A stretch of 64,000 bases of DNA from an uncultured Methanoregulaceae archaeon (GTDB lineage Archaea; Halobacteriota; Methanomicrobia; Methanomicrobiales; Methanospirillaceae): contig OY970343.1 in assembly GCA_963717525.1 (NCBI GenBank), positions 256,001-320,000 on the forward strand. The letters are read 5' to 3'. The position numbers and the translations under genes were made by a program. Shown piece by piece: positions 3,129 to 34,676 of the stretch. The notes under the pieces are model-generated. The model was given only the letters and a program-made list of their open reading frames with translations, had not been told where the DNA came from and made no database searches. Position 1 is the stretch's first letter. Every line of letters starts with the position of its first letter.

Positions 3129-3727
3129 TGAAAGCAGGAGTGCTCTACAGCGGCGGGAAGGATAGTTCCCTTGCAGCGATCATGCTGGGTACGTATTACG
3201 AGGTTGAACTCAACACCTTTGTGTTCGACCCCGCCCGCCTAATCCCGACAATAGAGAATGCCGCACAGGCGCTGGGGTTTCCTTTGAGAAAACGGGTATT
3301 TCCCGAAGGTATGGCAGAAGAGATGGCAGAGATGGTAATTTCGTGCGGGTATCCCAACGATGCGATCAACCGCATCCACCAGACTGCCATCGGGACCCTT
3401 GCCGGTGAGTACAAGGTCGTTGGCGACGGCACCCGGTTTGATGACCGGGTCCCGATGCTCACCAGGGCGCAGGTGCAGAGCATCTGCGGCAGGACCGGGA
3501 GCACGTACGTGCGCCCGCTCCTCGGCTACATGCGATCCGAAGTCGACCGGCTGGTTGACCGGCTCCTCCTCGTAGAGTACGGGGAGACCGGGACGATCGA
3601 AAACGGCGATTACGAATCCGAGATCAGGGCGGCGATCCGTGCCCGCGGAGTTGATCCCGCTGCCCTCTTTCCCCCTCACCACGAGCAGTCGCTTGTCGTG
3701 GGAAAAAAGAAGTGCACAAACAACTAG
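3125..3727 (+). CDS. PP-loop (adenine nucleotide alpha hydrolase) family protein
   Basis: LYSGGKDSSLA PP-loop motif; conserved position between PDCD5 and rpl39e. Confidence 0.85.
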   Translation: MMKAGVLYSGGKDSSLAAIMLGTYYEVELNTFVFDPARLIPTIENAAQALGFPLRKRVFPEGMAEEMAEMVISCGYPNDAINRIHQTAIGTLAGEYKVVGDGTRFDDRVPMLTRAQVQSICGRTGSTYVRPLLGYMRSEVDRLVDRLLLVEYGETGTIENGDYESEIRAAIRARGVDPAALFPPHHEQSLVVGKKKCTNN

Positions 3728-5366: not shown

Positions 5367-6854
5367 TCAGATCATCCCCGGCCCGCTCCCGCCCGATCCA
5401 TCCTGGTAATCCGGGTGGATCTCCGGCCGTACCACGAATGCCAGTACAAGGATGATGAGACCCAGCACAAACGAGCCAAGGAATGCGAGATCGAAGCCTG
5501 CCGTGGCCACCCTGATCTGCAGGTCGACCGGGGATTGCAGCGTCACGTTGTGGTTTGTGGCGATCGTAAGAATCCCCCACAGGAAGATCAGGTTGAACAT
5601 CGCTATCCCGAGGGTGAGGGGGACGAAGCGTTCGAGGCTGGTAAGGCTCGAGATCATGCCCTGCTTCGCCTTTGACACCGAGTTCATCACCATGTTCGAT
5701 ACCGGGGTGATGACAAGGCCAAGACCAAGGCCGATGAGCACCAGGCAGAGGACGACATACAGCACCGGCGTATCGGGATGGAGCTGCATGATGAAGAAAT
5801 AGCCGCCGGTAAGGAGGACACCGGCCGCGATGCAGAGCAGCCGGGGACCGGCCCGGTTGAAGAGGATGCCGGCGAGGATGCCTGCCCCCATCATTGCAAA
5901 GGAGAGTGAGGTCAGGATAAGGCCAGCGGTGGAGGTGTCGTAAGCGCTGACATATTTCAGGTAAAATGGCAGGAGATAATTGATCCCGGAAAAGCTGAAA
6001 AAGACAAGCGAGAGCAGGAGGTTGGTGGCGAGGAAGTTCCTGTTTTTAAAGAGTGAAAAGTCGAGGAGCGGGTCGGCTATCCGGCATTCGTGCCAGACAA
6101 ACCATCCCAGCGTGACCAGGGCGAGAAGGGCAAGGCCGAGGATGACCGGAGAGGTCCAGCCCATCGTCTCCCCTTCTGAGACGACGAAGAGCAGGGAGGC
6201 AAGGCCGCAGAAGATGAGCATGGCGCCGGCCCGGTCAAACCCGGCGAGTGATCCCGTGGTGACAGATGCCGGTATCACCCGTGCGCCAAGGAGAACCGCC
6301 CCTATCCCCACCGGCACATTGATGAAAAAGATCCAGTGCCACGAGAGGTACTGGGTCAGGACACCGCCGATAGTCGGCCCGAGCGCCGTCCCCAGGCCGG
6401 CAAGGGTCATGACGATCCCCATGGCCTTTCCCCTCTCCTCCATCGGGATGTAGGCAGTGACCATGGCCGGCGCGATCGCGCAGATCATCGCGCCGCCGAC
6501 CGCCTGGATTATGCGTGAGCCGACCAGCACGGTGAGCGAATCGAACATGTCAGGCAGGATGCCGCAGGCGAGCGAGCCGAGGGTGAAGATGACAAACCCG
6601 GTCAGGAATATCCGTTTGAACCCGATAATATCGGATATTTTCCCAAAGACCAGCACGCAGCCGGCCATCACGAGGAGATAGGCAGTTGCGACCCAGCTTA
6701 CGGTGGTCGATGATACGTGGAATGCTTCCGAGATGGTTGGCAGGGCGATGTTGACGATCGTGCCATCGAGTCCGGACATGAACGTGGCAAGCGAGATGGA
6801 GAAGACAAGAAGGAAGAAGCCGGACCGGGCGGCGCCTGTACCATGATCACTCAT
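5367..6854 (-). CDS. MFS drug-efflux transporter, DHA2 (EmrB/QacA) family
   Basis: About 14 TM segments; LDGTIVNIALP, GKISDIIGFKR and WHWIFFINVPVG motifs. Confidence 0.92.
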   Translation of the reverse strand: MSDHGTGAARSGFFLLVFSISLATFMSGLDGTIVNIALPTISEAFHVSSTTVSWVATAYLLVMAGCVLVFGKISDIIGFKRIFLTGFVIFTLGSLACGILPDMFDSLTVLVGSRIIQAVGGAMICAIAPAMVTAYIPMEERGKAMGIVMTLAGLGTALGPTIGGVLTQYLSWHWIFFINVPVGIGAVLLGARVIPASVTTGSLAGFDRAGAMLIFCGLASLLFVVSEGETMGWTSPVILGLALLALVTLGWFVWHECRIADPLLDFSLFKNRNFLATNLLLSLVFFSFSGINYLLPFYLKYVSAYDTSTAGLILTSLSFAMMGAGILAGILFNRAGPRLLCIAAGVLLTGGYFFIMQLHPDTPVLYVVLCLVLIGLGLGLVITPVSNMVMNSVSKAKQGMISSLTSLERFVPLTLGIAMFNLIFLWGILTIATNHNVTLQSPVDLQIRVATAGFDLAFLGSFVLGLIILVLAFVVRPEIHPDYQDGSGGSGPGMI

Positions 6855-7558: not shown

Positions 7559-8609
7559 ATGTTTTCGGGTCTCAGGGAACGGCTGCAGGCTGCACGCGAC
7601 CGGCTTGGCGCCAGCATCGGGGCAGCAGCGGAAGCAGCCCTGCCGGTGGCGCCGGCTGAACAGGCTGCCCCCGGAAAAACCGGTGACACCCCTCTGGCTG
7701 CAGGTCCGGCAAAGAACCCGACACTTGCCGACAAGGTAAAGATCCTCATCATCGACCGTGAACTGGTTGTTTCTGAAAAGGACGTTTCCGAGGCCCTCGG
7801 GGAACTGGAGATGACATTGCTCGAAAGCGACGTTGCTCTGCCGGTTGCCGATGCGCTTATCGCAGACATCCGCACCGGCCTCGTGGGAAAACACCGCAAA
7901 ATCGGGGAATCTGTGGACGCACTTGTTGTCAGGGCTCTCAAGTCTGCCCTGCTCAAGGTGCTCGGCTCGGGCTTTGACCTGTCGGCCTATATCAAAACCC
8001 ACGAGCGGCCGGTCAAGATCCTCTTTACCGGGGTGAACGGGACCGGGCAAGACCACGACAGTCGCAAAGATCGGGGCATACCTCAAGAAGCAGGGTTTCT
8101 CGGTCGTGATCGGGGCCGGCGACACCTACCGGGCCGGGGCCATCGAGCAGATAGGAGTACATGCAGAACGGCTGGGCATCAAGATTATCGAGCACAAAGC
8201 CGGTGCCGACCCGTCGGCGGTGCTCTTTGATACCGTGCAGTACGCACAGGCCCATAAGACCGACGTAGTACTTGCGGATACCGCCGGCCGGTTCCATACC
8301 AAAGCAAACCTCATGAGCCAGCTCGACAAGATACGGCGCGTGATGAAGCCCGACCTCATCGTTTATGTCGACGAAGCAGTGGCGGGAAACGATGCGGTAG
8401 TCCGGGCAGCAGAGTTTGACCGGACCGTCGGGGCCGATGCCATCGTGCTCACCAAGGCCGACATGGACTCCCGGGGCGGGGCAGCGATCTCGATCGCCCA
8501 CACCATCGGAAAACCTCTGCTCTTTCTCGGCACAGGGCAGGCCTACGAGGATATTATTCCGTTCGAACCCACGGTAATCGTCGACGAACTTCTCGGCGGT
8601 GCTGCCTGA
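7559..8609 (+). CDS. ftsY: SRP receptor FtsY (frameshift near 8045)
   Basis: LLESDVA; GVNGTGKTT split by an extra G; DTYRAGAIEQ, DTAGR, TKADMDSRGG. Confidence 0.93.
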
Positions 8610-9933
8610 TGATGGACAGTCTCTCTGACGCCCTCAAGGACGCCCTCAAGAAACTCGCCGGGAAAGCCGTAGTCGACCGTGCAGCAGTCGACGAGCTCGT
8701 CAAGAACCTCCAGCGGGCGCTTCTCTCGGCTGATGTGAACGTCAAGCTGGTGATGGAACTCTCAAAAGCGATCCGCTCCCGGTCGCTTGACGAGGAAGTG
8801 CCGAAAAACACCAATGTCCGCGAACACGTCCTCCGCATCGTCTACCAGGAACTGGTCCGGCTTGTCTATGCCTCGGCAGATGTAAAACTCGAGCCGCAGG
8901 TCATCCTGATGGCCGGCCTCCAGGGAAGCGGCAAGACAACGACCACGGCAAAGATCGCCCGCTACTTCCAGAAGAAGGGCATGAAAGTCGGGGTGATCTG
9001 CGCCGATACCTTCCGTCCCGGTGCCTACAACCAGCTTGCTACCCTCTGTGCGAAGATCAATGTGCCCTGCATCGGCGACCCGAAAGCCACCGATGCCCGG
9101 AAGATCGTAAAAGAGGGCCTCGTTGCCGTCAAAGACCAGGAGATCATCATCGTTGATACCCAGGGCCGCCACGCGCTGGAGCCCGACCTGATCCAGGAGA
9201 TCATCGACCTCAACGCGATCACGAAGGCCACCCACCGCTGGCTCGTGATCGATGCCGCGCTCGGCCAGCAGGCGAGCGAGCAGGCACGCCGGTTCCATGA
9301 AGCGATCGGGATCGACGGCGTGATCATCACCAAGATGGACGGCACGGCAAAAGGCGGGGGAGCACTCTCTGCCGTGGCCGAGACCAAGAGCGGGATCGTC
9401 TTTATCGGCGCAGGGGAGACGATCGAGAACCTCGAACGCTTCGATGCAAACGGCTTTATCTCCCGGCTCCTCGGGATGGGCGATCTGCAGGCCCTCTACG
9501 AGAAAGTCCAGGAAGCCCAGGTGTCAAACGAGGTTGACATGGAAGCGATGATGAAGGGCCACTTCACCCTTCGCGACATGTACAAGCAGCTCGAAGCCCT
9601 CAACAAGATGGGCCCCTTGAAACAGATCATGAACATGCTCCCGATGGGGAACATGCAGCTCCCCGAGGGTGTCTACGATGTGACGAGCACCAAGATGGTG
9701 CGGTACCGGATCCTCATGGACTCGATGACGCCCCAGGAGCTCGACGATCCCGGCATCATCTCCAGTTCCCGGATGCAGCGGATCGCCCGGGGGCCGGCGG
9801 GACCCCTGAAGAAGTCAGGGAACTTCTGAAATATTACAAGATGATGCACAAGACCCTCAAGGGTCTGCGGGGCGCCGGCGGCGGAAAATTCAACATGCAG
9901 CGCCTGATGAAACGCTTCTCCGGAATGCAGTGA
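8609..9933 (+). CDS. srp54: Signal recognition particle protein SRP54 (frameshift near 9790)
   Basis: [28 protein letters not shown] and M domain; C-terminus [13 protein letters not shown] in another frame ending at TGA 9931-9933. Confidence 0.93.
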
Positions 9934-10510: not shown

Positions 10511-11733
10511 ACGAACAGGTCGAAAAGATCCTCGCCTACGGAGACTGCTGCGATCACTGCCTGGGACGGTTCTTTGGCAAACGCTCGCACGGTCTTGGTG
10601 ACGATGAACGGGGCCGGGGCCTCAGGATAGCACGGGCGCTGGCCTCAAACCAGCCGTACGAACGCTTCTCCGGCATCTGCTGGGTCTGCGGGAATTTCTT
10701 TGACGCGGTACCGGAATGGGCACAAAAAGTGGTAGCCGCGATGGAGGGGTTCGAGTACTCGACCTTCCTTGTCGGCTGCCGGGTCCCCCCGCTTATCGCA
10801 GAGAACGAGGAGATGGTCTGGAGCGACCTCTCCCTTGGCGATCCCGAGCCGTTCAAGTCCGAGGTGAACCGCGAGGTGGGAAAGGCGGTATCGGCATTAA
10901 CGGGAAAGACCGTAGACTTCAAAAAACCAGATATCATCGCCCTGCTCGACCCGGCATCCGGCATGGTCGACATCCAGGTCAACTCCGTATTCTTCTACGG
11001 GAGGTACCAGAAGTTCGAGCGTGGTATCCCCCAGACCCACTGGAACTGCCGGGCCTGCAAGGGAGCAGGCTGCGAAAAGTGCAACTATACCGGCAAGCAG
11101 TACCTGGACTCGGTGGAAGAGCTGATCGGCAGGCCGGCTATTGAGGCATTCGACGCGGAAGATGCGGTGCTGCACGGCGCTGGCAGGGAGGATATCGATG
11201 CCCGCTGTGTAGGAACAGGCCGGCCGTTCATCCTTGAGATCGTTGCCCCGAAAAAGCGTTCAATCGACCTTGCCGCCCTCGAAGCAGAGATCAACAGGAG
11301 TGCAGATGGAAGGGTTGCGGTTGCCCTTTCGCACTGGAGCGACCGATCTGATGTGGAAACCCTTAAATCAAGTAAAGCGCATAAAAAATACAGGATCCTG
11401 GTCGAGGTTGAAGGGCAATTATCTGCGGGAGAACTCGCAAATGCCCTGAAAACCTTAAAGGGCGTCACAATACAGCAGCGCACGCCCGTACGGGTCGCCC
11501 ACCGGAGAGCTGATAAGATCCGGGAGCGTAAAGTCCTCGATATCGAGTTCGTAGGGGAACAGGATGGAAAGTTCATCCTTGAAGTCCTGGGCGAAGCCGG
11601 CCTCTACATCAAGGAACTCGTATCAGGCGATCAGGGAAGGACCATCCCGAGTCTTGCCGAGATCCTGCAGCGATCGGCGCACGTCACCAGCCTTGATGTC
11701 GTGCAGGTAGAAGGACCACAGGAGGGAGATTAA
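10501..11733 (+). CDS. pus10: tRNA pseudouridine(54/55) synthase Pus10
   Basis: CDHCLGR, GRYQK..RGIPQT, HGAGREDIDARC, GLYIKELVSGD.GRT.PSL. Confidence 0.95.
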   Translation: MEINEQVEKILAYGDCCDHCLGRFFGKRSHGLGDDERGRGLRIARALASNQPYERFSGICWVCGNFFDAVPEWAQKVVAAMEGFEYSTFLVGCRVPPLIAENEEMVWSDLSLGDPEPFKSEVNREVGKAVSALTGKTVDFKKPDIIALLDPASGMVDIQVNSVFFYGRYQKFERGIPQTHWNCRACKGAGCEKCNYTGKQYLDSVEELIGRPAIEAFDAEDAVLHGAGREDIDARCVGTGRPFILEIVAPKKRSIDLAALEAEINRSADGRVAVALSHWSDRSDVETLKSSKAHKKYRILVEVEGQLSAGELANALKTLKGVTIQQRTPVRVAHRRADKIRERKVLDIEFVGEQDGKFILEVLGEAGLYIKELVSGDQGRTIPSLAEILQRSAHVTSLDVVQVEGPQEGD

Positions 11734-30302: not shown

Positions 30303-31142
30303 ATGGGCCTTGCAGGATTTTTCAGGATCACCCGCCCGGCAAATTCGGTCATAGCCGGGCTTGCGGCGATTGTCGCATACCTTATCGCCACCGGTACGCT
30401 GGTGAACGGTGTCCTCCTGCTCATGGCCGTTGTCATCCTCATCACCGCCGCCGGGAACGTGATCAACGATTATTTTGACGCGGAGATCGACGCCATCAAC
30501 CGGCCGGAGCGTCCCATCCCCTCAGGTGCGATGAGCAGAAACGCAGCACTGGTCTGGGCCGGTATTCTGTTCATCCTCGGCCTCGCGGCCTGCATGTTCA
30601 CGACACCACTCTGCCTTGGTATCGCGCTCTTCAATGCCCTTCTTCTCGTCGTTTACGCGGCCCGGCTCAAAAGCACGCCTCTCCTGGGGAATATAGCAGT
30701 CGCGTATCTTTCCGCAAGCATCTTCCTCTTTGGCGGGGCGTTTGCCGGATGGCACTTGCTTGTCCAGGTACTCCCGATCGCTGTCATCACCTTCCTTGCG
30801 ATGCTGGCCCGGGAACTCCTGAAAGATGCGGAGGACATCGAGGGGGACCGGGCCGGTGGTGCGGACACCCTGCCCATCCGGATCGGTGTACAAAAAACCG
30901 CTCTTCTCGCCTTTATCTGTGCTGCAGCAGCGGTCACCGCGAGCGTGTTTCCGTATTCCTGGTGGGGTGTGTGGTATCTCCCCGGTATCGCCCTTGTCGA
31001 TGTTATCATCATCGGTGCGGCCGTAAAGGCACTTGGCAGCACGGATCCCGGCAGCCTGAAAGTGACCGGCTCGACAACACTTCTCAAGATCGGGATGTTT
31101 GCGTCCCTCGTGGTCTTTACGCTCTCTGCCGTTCTTTTATGA
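30303..31142 (+). CDS. Digeranylgeranylglyceryl phosphate synthase (UbiA family)
   Basis: ITRPAN, NVINDYFDAEIDAINRPERPIPSG, RELLKDAEDIEGD. Confidence 0.93.
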   Translation: MGLAGFFRITRPANSVIAGLAAIVAYLIATGTLVNGVLLLMAVVILITAAGNVINDYFDAEIDAINRPERPIPSGAMSRNAALVWAGILFILGLAACMFTTPLCLGIALFNALLLVVYAARLKSTPLLGNIAVAYLSASIFLFGGAFAGWHLLVQVLPIAVITFLAMLARELLKDAEDIEGDRAGGADTLPIRIGVQKTALLAFICAAAAVTASVFPYSWWGVWYLPGIALVDVIIIGAAVKALGSTDPGSLKVTGSTTLLKIGMFASLVVFTLSAVLL

Positions 31143-31197
31143 AGAGGGGCAAACGCACGGGTGACAGGCTTTGCACTTAATGTCACCTTTTGACCAG

Positions 31198-31230
31198 ACT
31201 TTAGGTGCAGACGCAAGACTTTAGGTGCAA
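31198..31230 (+). repeat. Left subterminal repeats actttaggtgca x2 (20-bp period)
   Basis: Copies start at 31198 and 31218; the motif resembles the TIR core. Confidence 0.85.
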
Positions 31231-31248
31231 GAATGAAATCCTTGCACT

Positions 31249-31425
31249 ATGGTAATAATCACCAAAGAAGGTGTTGATGGTAAGGTTTGTTCAACCTGCC
31301 ATGTTTGGAAACCACTATCAGAGTTCCCAACAGATCCGACTCATGGACCCAAACAAGGATTTAGACATTGTAGTTGTAGAGCATGTCATAGAGAAAAAAG
31401 CAGAGCACAGAGGCAAAACAAGTAA
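31249..31425 (+). CDS. 58-aa zinc-finger microprotein (transposon cargo)
   Basis: Manual translation MVIITKEGVDGKVCSTCHVWKPLSEFPTDPTHGPKQGFRHCSCRACHREKSRAQRQNK; CxxC-KPLSEF-...CxxC. Confidence 0.7.
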   Translation: MVIITKEGVDGKVCSTCHVWKPLSEFPTDPTHGPKQGFRHCSCRACHREKSRAQRQNK

Positions 31426-31428
31426 GGA

Positions 31429-32637
31429 TTATTTGTGAAGGAAACTAGGTTCGATTCCGTTTTCAAACATTTCGTGAATCACGACCGTCAAATTATATGC
31501 GATGATCTTTGCCAATAATTCGTTTATCTGCGCGATTTGATTTTTTGACTTGAGAGTTTCCCCGAACTTCCGCTTTATCGCCGCATTGGTGGATTCCACA
31601 TTACTGCGCTTGTGGTAGTGCTCCATGAACTCCTCGCGGTTCAACTGGAAGAAGTAATACATCTTGTTCCATAATGGAGAACCCCTTGTTTTGCACCTAG
31701 CATGTTTCTTGAATGGGATATACGCAACGCCGCCAACAGCGCCTGCCGCTTCAAAATTGTCACGCGATGAATACGCACGGTCGGCGGAAATTTCACAAAT
31801 GTTAAAGTTCTTTGAGAGATCTTCCACGAGCGGTTTAAAATGTGGTGAGTCGTTGTCGTTAGTAGTGGATATTTCTATACCGGTAACGATGTTGGTCTTA
31901 ACACCGGTTGCCATGTGTGCCTTTAACCACCGGTGTTCTTTTTTCTGACCGTGCTTCATTCCACAGTATGCGCCAAATGTTGTTGTCCTGAATCCAGTAG
32001 AATCTATTGCAAAATCAGTTTCAAGTCCGGCAACCGGTAACGCAGACAATGTAACCAATTCATGAAGTATCGGGGTTATTTCAGCATCGTTGAAGAGTTT
32101 AGATGGCGCGTTAAAGTGCGGCGCGTGGTCAATCTGTTGCTTATCTACTGCGTTTTGAAACAAGGTGTGCGCTCTGCGGCTGGACAACTGCGAATACACT
32201 TTTTGTATCGCACAGAAAAGGGATTCGCTAAGTGGCAGGCGCGGCCTTCCCATAGCCTGCTCTGGTTCAGGAATGGCTTTTACCAAGTCCTTTAACAGAG
32301 CGTCAAACAGCCTAATCTCTTCTGTCTGCGCGGCGTTGTACGCACTCCATGCCTGAGCATAGGTTAGGTGCATCTTCTCAGTAACCGTGCCTTTCGGTGT
32401 GTCTCTCTGTACTTCAAGATAAAAGCGGGTTGCCAGTATGTGTTTACACGGTAGACCACGCTTAACGAAGTCGGGGCAGGTGCAGGTCATTCCCTTATCG
32501 GTAGCTTTTACCTCGTAGACTCCGTGGCCGGTTTGGGATTTTACGGTATATGAGTGGTCGTCTACTTTCTTGATCTGCCCATTCTTTTCTACGATTGCTT
32601 TTCCTCTTTCTTCCCTTGTGGTTGTTAGTTGCTCCAT
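31429..32637 (-). CDS. Transposase: N-terminal SWIM zinc finger + DDE domain
   Basis: CTCPDF...PCKH SWIM; IDSTG, ADRAY and YHKRSNVE..NAAIKR (Y-2-R-3-E-6-K) catalytic motifs; GAGGT upstream of the ATG. Confidence 0.93.
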   Translation of the reverse strand: MEQLTTTREERGKAIVEKNGQIKKVDDHSYTVKSQTGHGVYEVKATDKGMTCTCPDFVKRGLPCKHILATRFYLEVQRDTPKGTVTEKMHLTYAQAWSAYNAAQTEEIRLFDALLKDLVKAIPEPEQAMGRPRLPLSESLFCAIQKVYSQLSSRRAHTLFQNAVDKQQIDHAPHFNAPSKLFNDAEITPILHELVTLSALPVAGLETDFAIDSTGFRTTTFGAYCGMKHGQKKEHRWLKAHMATGVKTNIVTGIEISTTNDNDSPHFKPLVEDLSKNFNICEISADRAYSSRDNFEAAGAVGGVAYIPFKKHARCKTRGSPLWNKMYYFFQLNREEFMEHYHKRSNVESTNAAIKRKFGETLKSKNQIAQINELLAKIIAYNLTVVIHEMFENGIEPSFLHK

Positions 32638-32641
32638 TTTA

Positions 32642-32725
32642 TTTACCTCTTTATTTACCAATAATATTTATGCCGTCAGACTACATAAACTTATTGGTAA
32701 ATAAAATGGTAAATTAAAAGGTAAG
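32642..32725. promoter_or_regulatory. Divergent promoter/operator region with a 15-bp inverted repeat and 12-bp-phased GGTAAA boxes
   Basis: tttatttaccaataa (32650-32664) / ttattggtaaataaa (32691-32705); TTTACC at 32642 and 32654; GGTAA at 32696, 32708 and 32720. Confidence 0.6.
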
Positions 32726-32761
32726 AAAAAGTATAAATAAAAAGGCACCAGAATGGTAAAT

Positions 32762-32944
32762 ATGCCCAGAAATTCAAAGGCAGATGAATCTATGTTAAAC
32801 CGAGCAACAAGCAAAGGTGGATCTTTACGAACCACAATACCGGCTTTTATTGTATCCTCATATGGATTGAAAGAAGGTGGTAAAATACGCTGGGTACTTG
32901 AAAACGGAAAAATTGTTGTTGAACCACAACATCCTGAAAAGTAA
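32762..32944 (+). CDS. AbrB/MazE/SpoVT-family DNA-binding protein
   Basis: GGSLRTTIPAFIVSSYGLKEGGKIRW...KIVV swapped-hairpin signature; divergent from the transposase. Confidence 0.85.
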   Translation: MPRNSKADESMLNRATSKGGSLRTTIPAFIVSSYGLKEGGKIRWVLENGKIVVEPQHPEK

Positions 32945-33045
32945 ATATTAAGGTAAATAATGTGCCAATAGAAAGATTTAAGATCCCTGAGTCTATACAT
33001 ACATATGGATGCCTAGGTTCGCTGGGCTCTACTGAAGAAAATTAA

Positions 33046-33118
33046 CGGGCACGGCGGGGATCGAACCCGCACCAGCAAGATTAGCAGTCTCGTACACTGT
33101 CCATTATGCTACGTGCCC
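33046..33118 (-). tRNA. Non-canonical tRNA, anticodon GCT (Ser) but short variable loop and Arg-type body
   Basis: GGGCACG-TA-GCAT-AATGGACA-GTGT-A-CGAGA-CTGCTAA-TCTTG-CTGGT-GCGGG-TTCGATC-CCCGC-CGTGCCC-G (73 nt, complete cloverleaf). Confidence 0.85.
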
Positions 33119-33127
33119 ACAGTGGTT

Positions 33128-33201
33128 TGGGGCGTGTGGTGGGAATCGAACCCGCAGTCCGGCTTTACAAGAGGAGGACCCCGACCTTCGGGACACACGC
33201 C
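33128..33201 (-). tRNA. Atypical tRNA-like RNA, anticodon TGT, encoded CCA (possibly a pseudo-tRNA)
   Basis: G-GCGTGTG-T-CCCG-AAGGT-CGGG-G-TCCTCCT-CTTGTAA-AGCCGGA-CT-GCGGG-TTCGATT-CCCAC-CACACGC-C-CCA. Confidence 0.6.
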
Positions 33202-33249
33202 ACTAATTACTTGTCCATTTGGGACCACCTCGCCTCTTCTACATAGGGC

Positions 33250-34029
33250 TTATTCATCAAATTCAACACCCTTGCGTTTGAGATCCTTTATCATCTTCTT
33301 TACAAGACTCTCTGCGAATTTTGCAGTAAGATCATCAGTAACCACCACGACATGTCCCCTATACTCGACTTTTCCCGGGTCGGGGGCTTGCTCTTCAACC
33401 GCATGTGTTTGCAGAGGTGCTGCCGTAGTTCCCTCATTCCCGTTCCCTAATGCATGTTGGCTACTATTGTCTGGTTGTGTATTTTGTGTGGGGGCAGTGT
33501 GCGCAGGCTCCACGGTAAACGTACTTGGTATATGAAGCGTGAGCTTGCGAACAAACGGTTGCCTAGAGGAATAAGGCGGATTTTTTGTAATACATTGGAT
33601 ATCGGCATTATATGCTGACCAGAGATTATCCAAGGAGTCGGTGTCAATATTAATGAGTGATGGGATTGACCTTACTGTCTTATCGAACAGTGCCTTATCG
33701 GGGGTTTTGCCGATGGTGGCAATTAATTGTTTCCACAACGGGGATCTGTTTACCGCAGCCTCTATAGCTGAAGATCGATGAGGGCCGTCTGATAGGATCG
33801 CTTTTCCCCGATCCGTTAACACATAGGTTCCGTTTTTTGTCTGCTGAATAAACCCATAGAGTTCCATATCCCGCAATTTATCGCGGGCACTTGTGATCTT
33901 TATTTTTGTTGTCTCCATGAATTTATCACGAGTGAGACCGGCGTTGAACCCCTCGCTGATTTCCCTAATTGTATCTGCACAAATCCCGACTCGTGTATAT
34001 ATTATGGGGGCGTCCCCGTACCTGTCCAT
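33250..34029 (-). CDS. Hypothetical protein with N-terminal winged-helix-like domain (transposon cargo)
   Basis: ARDKLRDMELYGFIQ...YVLTDRGKAIL wHTH wing pattern; low-complexity linker; short C-terminal helical domain. Confidence 0.7.
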   Translation of the reverse strand: MDRYGDAPIIYTRVGICADTIREISEGFNAGLTRDKFMETTKIKITSARDKLRDMELYGFIQQTKNGTYVLTDRGKAILSDGPHRSSAIEAAVNRSPLWKQLIATIGKTPDKALFDKTVRSIPSLINIDTDSLDNLWSAYNADIQCITKNPPYSSRQPFVRKLTLHIPSTFTVEPAHTAPTQNTQPDNSSQHALGNGNEGTTAAPLQTHAVEEQAPDPGKVEYRGHVVVVTDDLTAKFAESLVKKMIKDLKRKGVEFDE

Positions 34030-34152
34030 ATGATCAAATCCTTGTGATCAATTGGTATGCTGTTTGGGAATATAGCGCTTTGGGTTGGTGTGTGTTACGT
34101 GGCGCAGTGTGAAAGTGAAAATGTGGTGTGCATATCATTTTTGGATGGCTAT

Positions 34153-34185
34153 ACTTTAGGTGCAAGTTTCATACTTTGGGTGCAA
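34153..34185 (+). repeat. Right subterminal repeats acttt(a/g)ggtgcaa x2 (20-bp period)
   Basis: Copies start at 34153 and 34173, immediately inside the right TIR. Confidence 0.85.
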
Positions 34186-34262
34186 ATGGGGGTTTAAGTG
34201 CAAAGCCCGGGTGACAACAACCTTTATGCACAAGGTCGTGCCTCAACTACTTTGATACGCAC

Positions 34263-34676
34263 ATGGCAAACGTCATCCAGAAAGGCAGCACGTATTATGC
34301 ACCAAAAGGGGCGTATTACGAAGGAAATGTCCGGATTGACGGTGATTTTATCGTGCCCGCACGGACCCATTTCTGGGGACGGCTCGTGGTGACCGGCAAA
34401 CTCGAACTGGGCATGAAGTCGAGCGTTGCTCTCGATGTTGAATGCGGGAGCGCGGTCATCGGGAGCCATGCCCGGATAAAAGGGCCGCTCGTGGCAGCCG
34501 GGGATGTGAGCCTCCTCGATCACTGCGTAATTTATTCTGTTGCGGCGGGGGGGAAAGTCATCATCAGGCCCGATGTCCGCGTCGGGGACGTGACCAGCAG
34601 CGATGCGATCATTGTCCACGGCAAGATAAAGAGCGGGAAATTAACCGGCAAGAGCATGAAGGTCCTCGGGAACTGA
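34263..34676 (+). CDS. Bactofilin-like (polymer-forming) beta-helix protein
   Basis: Repeated G.l...G.v.l beta-helix units (EGNVRIDGDFIV, GRLVVTGKLEL). Confidence 0.7.
   Translation: MANVIQKGSTYYAPKGAYYEGNVRIDGDFIVPARTHFWGRLVVTGKLELGMKSSVALDVECGSAVIGSHARIKGPLVAAGDVSLLDHCVIYSVAAGGKVIIRPDVRVGDVTSSDAIIVHGKIKSGKLTGKSMKVLGN

Follow-up and report, generated by a model that had tools for sequence, protein, structure and literature searches.

An archaeal IS5-like insertion sequence carrying a winged-helix gene, a minigene and a tandem pair of irregular tRNA-like genes

The window analyzed here, a 64-kb stretch from the genome of an uncultured Methanoregulaceae archaeon (2.29 Mb, a single-contig metagenome assembly of 87% completeness), contains at positions 31167-34207 an intact cargo-carrying insertion sequence (IS) of an archaeal IS5-like family, 3,041 bp long and present as a single copy in the genome. 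Comparison of related loci identifies its real cargo as a cassette comprising a winged helix-turn-helix (wHTH) gene, a three-codon minigene with a strong Shine-Dalgarno (SD) sequence, and two tandem irregular tRNAs. For these tRNAs we favor, at a probability of roughly 45%, a role as regulated mimics of tRNAs or as tRNAs of switched identity, and we consider ordinary codon supplementation less likely. The parts of the cassette, in the order in which they would be transcribed, are:

33250..34029, minus strand: winged-helix protein of 259 amino acids (aa) (AlphaFold model; weak Pfam match to HTH_45, 20.6 bits)
33226..33231, minus strand: SD-like GAGGTG, 7 nt upstream of the minigene ATG, found by eye
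33213-33225: possible 4-bp hairpin GTCC/GGAC, found by eye, covarying among cassettes
33207..33218, minus strand: three-codon minigene ATG GAC AAG TAA, read directly, 6 nt upstream of the G-1 of tRNA2
33128..33201, minus strand: tRNA2, compact and irregular, with G-1:C73, an encoded CCA and anticodon UGU (Thr), found by ARAGORN
33046..33118, minus strand: tRNA1, a class I cloverleaf with anticodon GCU (Ser codons AGY) and G73, without a long variable arm or an encoded CCA

The boundaries of the element are defined by terminal inverted repeats (TIRs), a target-site duplication (TSD) and subterminal repeats:

31158..31166: left TSD copy cgggtgaca, read directly; empty sites in congeners keep one related copy (NNNNNgaca)
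31167..31180, plus strand: left TIR GGCTTTGCACTTAA, from direct reading and a 14-mer search
31200-31209 and 31220-31229, plus strand: two subterminal repeats TTTAGGTGCA, matches to TTTRRGTGCA
34155..34184, plus strand: two subterminal repeats, TTTAGGTGCA and TTTGGGTGCA, adjoining the right end, matches to TTTRRGTGCA
34194..34207, minus strand: right TIR, the exact reverse complement of GGCTTTGCACTTAA, from direct reading and a 14-mer search
34208..34216: right TSD copy cgggtgaca, read directly

Both the 14-bp TIR and the 9-bp TSD are perfect. With up to two mismatches allowed, the TIR 14-mer occurs at only two sites in the window (shuffled sequences average 0.34 occurrences, and 4 of 100 shuffles give two or more), and the only inverted TIR pair with a TSD in the whole genome is that of this element. 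The pattern TTTRRGTGCA has five matches in the window, all of them at the element's ends, a number reached by none of 100 shuffles; these subterminal repeats are probably transposase-binding sites, a prediction made from their sequence and placement. All five (31200-31229, 34155-34202) lie on the plus strand, the left copies opposite in orientation to the left TIR and the right copies in agreement with the right TIR, and the two ends of the element are therefore asymmetric. Its G+C content is about 45%, versus about 60% in the flanks.

The insertion lies between genes for DGGGP synthase and bactofilin. Twenty-nine congener loci were compared, of which 19 have both flanks, the other ten having one flank only or being transposase hits. 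All 19 show an empty site in which a single related target, ...NNNNNgaca followed directly by acaacctttatgcacaagg, is kept; the gap is at most 35 nt in 14 of them and 72-220 nt in the other 5. Contigs from an independent metagenome study, identical in sequence, bridge both junctions (31000-31196 and 34171-34400), and a chimeric assembly is therefore excluded. The original prediction for this region, made from the letters of the sequence alone, had proposed an intact transporter IS with a single uninterrupted transposase, 14-bp TIRs and a 9-bp TSD, and had named a single target copy in relatives as a check and a chimeric assembly as a ground for refutation; on each of these points it holds, and all of the features lie at the positions it gave.

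Fifteen loci encoding the winged-helix protein were examined, 14 of them evaluable because one ends within the gene. A same-strand tRNA-like gene lies just downstream of the wHTH gene in nine of the 14 (the window, L034, L038, L039, L041, L042, L043, L052 and L106). The sister element, L034, has the same TIR and a winged-helix protein 73% identical to that of the window, followed by a tRNA-like gene with the Thr anticodon CGU and by a Ser(GCU) tRNA of 92 nt. At L046 the cassette is found between IMPDH and SOD genes without any transposase, and at L047 it has the gene order of the window and sits beside an unrelated DDE transposase and a DUF2080 gene. Because the wHTH gene, minigene and tRNAs thus also occur without the window's IS, the cassette is, on this comparative evidence, a separate unit. 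Searches for TIRs and TSDs around the cassettes of L046, L047 and L048 gave no convincing ends; a 14-nt inverted pair at L047 lies inside open reading frames (ORFs) and lacks a duplication. A scan with the winged-helix protein and one with a degenerate pattern for the compact tRNA class described below found no relative in viral contigs, and a viral origin of the cassette was accordingly rejected.

The first tRNA of the pair, tRNA2, has a 5-nt D-loop, a 3-bp D-stem according to ARAGORN and a 7-bp anticodon stem with mismatches, and its match to Rfam model RF00005 (33131-33200; 21.2 bits, E 0.73) falls below the 29-bit cut-off. Together with L034a and L041a it makes up what we term class A, in which the D-loop has 5 nt, the anticodon stem has 7 bp with mismatches at one or two of them, the anticodon loop is a regular CU-NGU-AA and the variable region is two bases long. 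All three sequences have G-1:C73, the established histidine identity mark (PMC5389517), together with anticodons UGU, CGU and CGU rather than the GUG of tRNA-His; the window's copy also encodes CCA. Across the three, 91.7% of cells are paired and compensatory changes are found in 8 of 24 pairs, values reached by none of 500 shuffles and approached by no slid register. A BLAST search with the tRNA pair against 228 family genomes returned only one genome, G159; the six best short matches, on inspection, were unrelated sequence without a tRNA-like gene (at least four of them inside one conserved protein-coding gene), and the remaining short matches cover the T-arm. With covariance model R1, run on 108 genus genomes, tRNA2 scored 88.5 bits and every other match 40.3 bits or less; the one of these that was checked, in the window's own genome, is an ordinary tRNA-Gly. 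Two known kinds of RNA were considered and rejected: tRNA-Pyl, a kind with a compact D-loop, a long anticodon stem and a short variable loop, since the anticodon of tRNA2 is UGU rather than CUA and the genome has no PylS (best TIGR02367 score 29.1 bits, against a cut-off of 178), and tmRNA, since the only matches to the tmRNA model were 18-nt T-arm matches.

The second tRNA varies among cassettes. The partners of the class A tRNAs, and the tRNA-like genes of the other cassettes, are:

L034b: long variable region, G73, anticodon GCU
Window tRNA1: the counterpart of L034b without the arm, anticodon GCU
L039a, L052, L038 (cut off) and probably L042: long arm, G73, anticodon UAU (read by eye in L038 and L042)
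L043: long arm, G73, anticodon CCA
L106: Leu-like body, G73, anticodon UAA
L039b: Gly(CCC)-like, 8-nt loop, four-base anticodon CCCC
L041b: 6-nt loop, anticodon not assignable

In the window, tRNA1 scores 63.3 bits against RF00005, above the 29-bit gathering cut-off, yet its variable loop measures 5 nt versus the 22-nt variable region of L034b, so that it lacks the long arm expected of a tRNA-Ser; the host tRNAs closest to it are Arg(CCU/UCU). The comparison indicates that tRNA1 has lost the Ser-type long arm kept by its L034b counterpart. The bodies of L039a, L052 and L043 are closest to host tRNA-Ser and combine this Ser-type body with a non-Ser anticodon, and the tRNA-like gene of L042 is degenerate (33.5 bits). 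The host has canonical tRNAs of its own for Ser(GCU), 86 nt in length, and for Thr(UGU); its tRNA-Thr carries U73 and its tRNA-Leu A73.

A minigene precedes the first tRNA in seven of nine cassettes, with an SD-like GGAGGTGA-type motif, a spacing of 5-7 nt, an ATG, two codons and a TAA or TAG, and with 6-14 nt between it and the tRNA. The stems of the putative hairpin read GTCC/GGAC, GGCC/GGCC, GCCC/GGGC and TCCC/GGGA in different cassettes. Phage lambda bar minigenes are two- to three-codon ORFs with a strong SD sequence that trap peptidyl-tRNA. The cassette minigene resembles them in its strong SD, ATG, two sense codons and stop, and differs in standing 6-14 nt before a tRNA-like gene and inside a covarying hairpin.

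The winged-helix protein consists of a wHTH plus helical domain (residues 14-148), a disordered linker, and a short conserved C-terminal beta-hairpin and helix. Its AlphaFold model has a per-residue confidence (pLDDT) above 90 across residues 11-150, and the fold is clearly winged-helix; the best Foldseek matches in the PDB are MarR/DtxR/PhiH1-repressor-like, weak and generic, all with E above 0.008. Searches of Pfam, NCBIfam, PHROGs and PADLOC for its function yielded nothing beyond weak HTH matches, and the ESM Atlas gave unnamed clusters. The protein is probably a DNA-binding regulator of the cassette. The family comprises 84 clusters at E<=1e-3 among 1.84 billion protein representatives and occurs in 9 of 401 genomes of the order, 9 of 108 of the genus and, credibly, 2 of 401 of the phylum, the window's own genome being included in each count; the phylum scan thus added one credible locus, in G441, the remainder being HTH-only matches. 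Upstream of the wHTH gene, a motif CACATTTTCAYTTTCACAC is common to several cassettes (window 34030-34160, L046 at about 10590-10650, L034 150-230), and this region is a candidate promoter or operator.

Two metatranscriptome runs from one sample, of about 22 million letters each, gave one contig apiece that matches the window with 0 differences, at 33024-33212 and 33024-33201, with word depths of 27.6 and 19.6. These contigs span both tRNAs, the spacer and short flanks. Because a 190-nt piece reaches a word depth of 20-28 in runs of only about 22 million letters, carry-over of genomic DNA is unlikely. Nothing else of the 3.4 kb was found in either RNA run, which is not evidence that the wHTH, transposase and AbrB genes are silent.

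These results bear out most of what had been predicted for the RNA genes. ARAGORN finds both of the proposed non-canonical tRNA genes, which follow the wHTH ORF and, like it, are encoded on the minus strand; and the claimed disagreement between anticodons and identity elements is seen in the G-1:C73 of tRNA2 with its UGU and in the GCU of tRNA1 without a Ser-type long arm. Two further conditions named in advance as refuting, homologous elements that never carry tRNA-like sequences and a region that is not transcribed or processed, did not refute the proposal: the sister element L034 carries the same pair, and RNA-library contigs cover the pair.

A DNA run, X9, contains two joints within the element, one from 31254 to 32970 that skips the zinc-finger, transposase and AbrB genes (1,715 bp) and one from 33251 to 34171 that skips the wHTH gene (919 bp); their shorter sides, 29 and 28 letters, are below the bridging threshold. 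Loose ends from the same run show TIR-like sequence adjoining 32939 and 33265, immediately alongside the tRNA pair. We take these as a lead, hinting at short TIR-bounded, non-autonomous derivatives resembling miniature inverted-repeat transposable elements and carrying the tRNA pair only.

The design of the RNAs has a published precedent. Mukai et al. 2017 (Nucleic Acids Res 45:2776, PMC5389517) describe "irregular tRNA" polycistrons from forest and peat soil metatranscriptomes, attributed to Acidobacteria and found near toxin-antitoxin or transposon genes, with two or three tandem tRNA-like genes per transcript and a function left unexplained. The first species is a G-1/C73 "tRNAHis-like" RNA with a Thr anticodon (GGU, CGU or UGU) and often an encoded CCA, and the second a long-arm tRNA whose anticodon is mismatched to its identity; 8/4 stems or an additional loop are found in many of them, and the partners are mostly stop-codon readers (UCA, CUA, UUA) (PMC5389517). 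G-1 species with Thr anticodons were charged by E. coli HisRS and showed no ACC decoding (PMC5389517). The window, L034 and L041 share this gene order, a G-1:C73 NGU tRNA followed by a second odd tRNA, and one RNA-library contig spans both tRNA genes of the window, which gives the pair the makeup of an irregular polycistron. The window cassette differs from the bacterial polycistrons in its archaeal chromosome, its 7/5 stems (plus G-1) with a shrunken D-arm and a lengthened anticodon stem, the conserved winged-helix gene and minigene that precede the pair, and its place inside a defined IS. Two stretches of the window tRNAs, of 16 and 18 nt, gave no match in a text look-up of the Mukai supplement. 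The suggestion of an undescribed system therefore holds in part: the RNA design has this 2017 precedent, and a search of the literature found no description of tRNA cargo in an IS.

The long-arm tRNAs of the cassettes also recall the allo-tRNAs, in which a body of the Ser type, with G73 and a long variable arm, is combined with many different non-Ser anticodons, most commonly UAU, and which are linked to transposable elements and toxin-antitoxin systems, the UAU species being translation-inactive (PMC5389517, PMC7609411); among allo-tRNA(UAU) variants, reported as inactive, two were lethal (PMC5389517). Ser-type body, G73 and non-Ser anticodons are shared. ARAGORN folds all of the cassette tRNAs as 7/5, not with an 8/4 or 9/3 acceptor/T-stem, and because of these stems they fall outside allo-tRNA geometry. 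Viruses and phages carry tRNAs that supply codons or escape tRNA-cleaving defenses. Like phage tRNAs, those of the cassette reside on a mobile element whose base composition is unlike that of the host, with a bias to A/U-ending codons; unlike them, they have a 3-kb transposon as carrier, mismatched identity marks and aberrant arms.

In the mechanism that we favor, the tRNA pair would be transcribed from the wHTH promoter as the tail of the wHTH mRNA, then excised by RNase P and tRNase Z, and would accumulate. Recognition of the RNAs, and probably their charging, would depend on the acceptor marks and not on the anticodons, and the RNAs would not serve as ordinary decoders; they might act instead on translation or on the tRNA-surveillance machinery, whether by low-level recoding or poisoning or by titration of tRNA-binding enzymes or nucleases. 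The winged-helix protein would repress its own operon, and a ribosome translating the minigene could gate the folding and processing of the first tRNA, the minigene stop being 6 nt away from tRNA2. Mimicry or a switch of identity is preferred because codon supply fits poorly with the identity marks, with the abnormal loops and with what is known of the bacterial precedent.

Several observations weigh against this proposal. RNA contigs from one sample cannot show strand, ends or level, and an RNA library can hold DNA; nor do these contigs show co-transcription with the wHTH gene, whose mRNA goes unseen. The fold of the winged-helix protein is generic and uninformative about RNA. Class A rests on three sequences, with no other member in the 108 genus genomes, and the cassette itself is rare, the wHTH gene occurring in 9 of those 108. 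Five of the 14 evaluable wHTH loci (L036, L040, L044, L045 and L053), including the close homologs L036 and L040, have no tRNA-like gene. The lost arm of tRNA1, the abnormal loops of partner tRNAs and the degenerate L042 gene also fit slow decay, and the commonest anticodons, UAU, UAA and UGU, read codons used 2-5 times more by the A+T-rich element than by the host.

The last point is the best argument for the strongest rival, an ordinary codon supplementation in which the tRNAs are correctly charged decoders of A/U-ending codons (ACA, AGU, AUA, UUA), as in phages, and which we judge unlikely. Codon usage in the element versus the host is 0.37 versus 0.16 for ACA, 0.38 versus 0.12 for ATA and 0.19 versus 0.04 for TTA, and the cassette anticodons include UGU, UAU (in four or five cassettes) and UAA; the pair appears in RNA libraries, and all anticodon loops but two are regular 7-nt CU-NNN-AA loops. 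Those two exceptions, of 8 and 6 nt, count against plain decoding, however, and the acceptor marks contradict the anticodons, with G-1:C73 joined to NGU and a G73 long-arm body to UAU, CCA or UAA, while host tRNA-Thr has U73 and host tRNA-Leu A73. The anticodons CGU and CCA read codons that are not rare, the GCU tRNA of the window lacks the Ser arm, and the host already has Ser(GCU) and Thr(UGU) tRNAs. The analogous bacterial G-1 tRNAs, moreover, did not decode in E. coli in the experiments cited above (PMC5389517).

If instead the tRNAs were decaying hitch-hikers, functionless relics of tRNA genes captured with the wHTH gene (att-site remnants, for example) and transcribed by read-through, the missing arm that L034b retains, the degenerate L042, the abnormal loops, the five of 14 loci lacking tRNA-like genes and the rarity of the cassette would all follow. 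We consider this quite unlikely. The same odd design recurs in unrelated bacterial transcripts (PMC5389517). Compensatory changes keep all four class A helices, the combination of G-1:C73 and an NGU anticodon is kept in three of three cases across winged-helix proteins only 42-73% identical, the minigene is conserved in seven of nine cassettes, and the RNA-library contigs suggest that RNA of the pair accumulates far above the neighboring mRNA.

Very unlikely, in our estimation, is a role purely in processing or stability, in which the cloverleaves would mark where RNase P and tRNase Z cut the wHTH mRNA, or would protect its 3' end, and their anticodons would be irrelevant. Parallels exist in mascRNA and in viral 3' tRNA-like structures. 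Where tRNAs are present, they invariably share the strand of the wHTH ORF and follow it directly on its 3' side, the minigene stop is 6-14 nt from the first cloverleaf, and the anticodons vary freely, all as such a role would have it. Two tandem tRNAs of two conserved types nevertheless exceed what a cut site needs, and the 7-nt CU-NNN-AA loops have been retained, as have the marks of identity (G-1:C73, or G73 together with a long arm); the X9 run also hints, weakly given a side of 28 letters, at variants with the pair but without the wHTH gene. Finally, an assembly artifact that joined the element, or the part with the tRNAs, chimerically is next to impossible: nothing was found in its favor, and against it stand identical independent contigs across both junctions, perfect ends and duplication, and the sister element L034 at the same site in another metagenome.

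A bolder reading, which we think rather unlikely, extends the mimic or identity-switch proposal to a mobile recoding or mis-decoding module spread by transposons across two domains of life. One tRNA of its identity-switched pair would join a His acceptor to a Thr anticodon; the other would place an anticodon for Ile, Leu, Trp or Ser on a Ser-type body, or else be a +1 frameshifting Gly-CCCC. The pair would be under a dedicated winged-helix repressor and a ribosome-sensing minigene; once de-repressed, it might alter or poison host decoding and serve as an addiction, abortive-infection or stress-diversification device. If true, this would explain the orphan irregular tRNA polycistrons of soil metatranscriptomes. 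Irregular tRNAs with mismatched identity and anticodon had so far been seen in soil bacteria alone, as orphan transcripts and as scattered genes. Here the same design is found in an archaeal chromosome that is complete and within a transposon with clean boundaries, and it is accompanied by a protein partner and a minigene, both conserved, and by signs of expression. The cassette gives the irregular-tRNA question a clonable genetic unit, along with evidence of reach into the archaea and of transfer by transposons. Should the RNAs be charged by their acceptor marks, they would represent a natural, mobile and regulated form of mistranslation; if not, a new class of tRNA mimic. As a by-product, the work describes an IS family with a SWIM plus DDE transposase and variable cargo, in which one chromosomal spot is used repeatedly.

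The remaining genes of the window element are:

31249..31425, plus strand: Cys/His zinc-ribbon ORF of 58 aa, resembling the N-terminal part of His-Me finger/endonuclease VII nucleases
31429..32661, minus strand: transposase of 410 aa, uninterrupted, IS5-like, with an N-terminal SWIM zinc finger and DDE_Tnp_1 (Pfam)
32753..32944, plus strand: AbrB/MazE(SpoVT)-type gene of 63 aa, divergent from the transposase gene (Pfam MazE_antitoxin, E 6.9e-8)

The transposase matches DDE_Tnp_1 (PF01609) with E 2.7e-23 and 83.2 bits, against a 23-bit cut-off, and SWIM with E 3.2e-7; the best of eight transposase models is NCBIfam NF033579 (transpos_IS5_2), at 137.1 bits against a cut-off of 140. Relatives were found at 30 loci, 40-81% identical, in Methanoregulaceae, Methanothrix, Methanocella and several DPANN-type archaeal metagenome-assembled genomes (MAGs). 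Eight could be followed from TIR to TIR, at 2.9-4.7 kb. Related elements conserve a TIR core, GGCTTTGCA, at both ends, and five of the six relatives with both flanks have a 9-bp TSD (L004, L005, L009, L014 and L029; none in L007). In all eight complete relatives the transposase is preceded upstream by a small ORF, either RHH (ribbon-helix-helix), DUF7557 or unnamed, and in seven of them this ORF is divergent; the equivalents of the AbrB-type gene are AbrB-type in L002 and L003, and RHH_5 or DUF7557 in L007, L009 and L014. Because relatives hold a small gene at the same place, the AbrB-type gene belongs to the IS core and not, as had originally been supposed, to its cargo; by this comparison the core consists of the SWIM plus DDE transposase and a small divergent AbrB/RHH-type gene.

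The cargo of the relatives is varied, including restriction-modification genes, HEPN, major facilitator superfamily (MFS) transporters, a MarR-like protein and membrane proteins. None of the eight complete relatives has a tRNA inside the element, and tRNA cargo is therefore not a trait of the IS family; none has a wHTH or Cys/His gene either. Cargo-carrying transporter ISs of the IS4-IS5 DDE group typically have one DDE transposase, short TIRs, a TSD of fixed length and passenger genes between the ends. The window element shares all of these and departs from the typical transporter IS in the N-terminal SWIM finger of its transposase, the small AbrB/RHH gene in its core, its asymmetric subterminal repeats, the reuse of one chromosomal spot, and RNA genes as passengers.

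This reuse is seen in two other loci. In L014, from a syntenic Methanoregulaceae MAG, a family member with a frameshifted transposase and different cargo occupies exactly the same position in the same orientation, with a perfect TSD, ataacgaca (window orientation; 3389-3397 and 6259-6267), that differs from the window TSD at five of nine bases; with cargo and TSD both different, a single ancestral insertion event is hard to reconcile with the data. L034, a metagenome contig, also carries the element at this spot, there in reverse orientation and with the duplication cgggcgaca (73-81). Three lineages thus have family members before acaacctttatgcacaagg, with TSDs cgggtgaca, ataacgaca and cgggcgaca, which points to at least three independent hits on the spot between the DGGGP-synthase and bactofilin genes and to a strong site preference. 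The apparent target preference is ...GACA followed directly by ACAACCTTTATGCACAAGG. Because the flank CTTTATGCACAAGG resembles the element's subterminal repeats, we infer that the transposase may target end-like sequence.

None of the element's ORFs matched a toxin domain, the AbrB/MazE-type ORF standing alone; a toxin-antitoxin pair of MazEF/AbrB type, considered for this region, was rejected for want of an adjacent toxin gene. The 58-aa Cys/His ORF matches Pfam His_Me_b4a2 at 23.1 bits, below the 25-bit cut-off, and a PHROG endonuclease VII family with E 3.6e-7, and tblastn found no relative of it in 32 related loci; it is probably a nuclease remnant.

Two wHTH loci without tRNA-like genes show other features downstream. 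At L036 (1161-2236), a wHTH homolog about 50% identical to that of the window is followed by a HicA-toxin-domain gene in place of the tRNA-like genes. At L040, at about 2330-2360, downstream of the wHTH gene of genome G361, ggggtcggacctcgtaaaa resembles by eye the part of class A that includes the D-arm and anticodon loop, and may be a decayed class A tRNA remnant. At L048, an 86-nt direct repeat of the thiC 3' end (8500-8585 and 9582-9667, 90% identical) brackets about 1 kb of inserted DNA adjoining a wHTH plus tRNA(CCA) cassette and looks like the att duplication of another integrated element.

The genome of the window has two distant relatives of the SWIM-DDE transposase, L002 and L003 (G000:C1:1834765-1838082 and 2072666-2075959), 43% identical to that of the window over the N-terminus and each accompanied by a divergent AbrB/MazE-type gene. 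Each has one in-frame stop (TAG and TAA, respectively) in an open frame of about 400 aa, and these transposases may be pseudogenes or recoded genes. The family member L005 (1692-6272), with type I/IIG restriction-modification cargo (HSDR_N, N6_Mtase and Methylase_S), has its insertion site 67 bp away from a gene for tRNA-Ile(GAU) (1549-1625).

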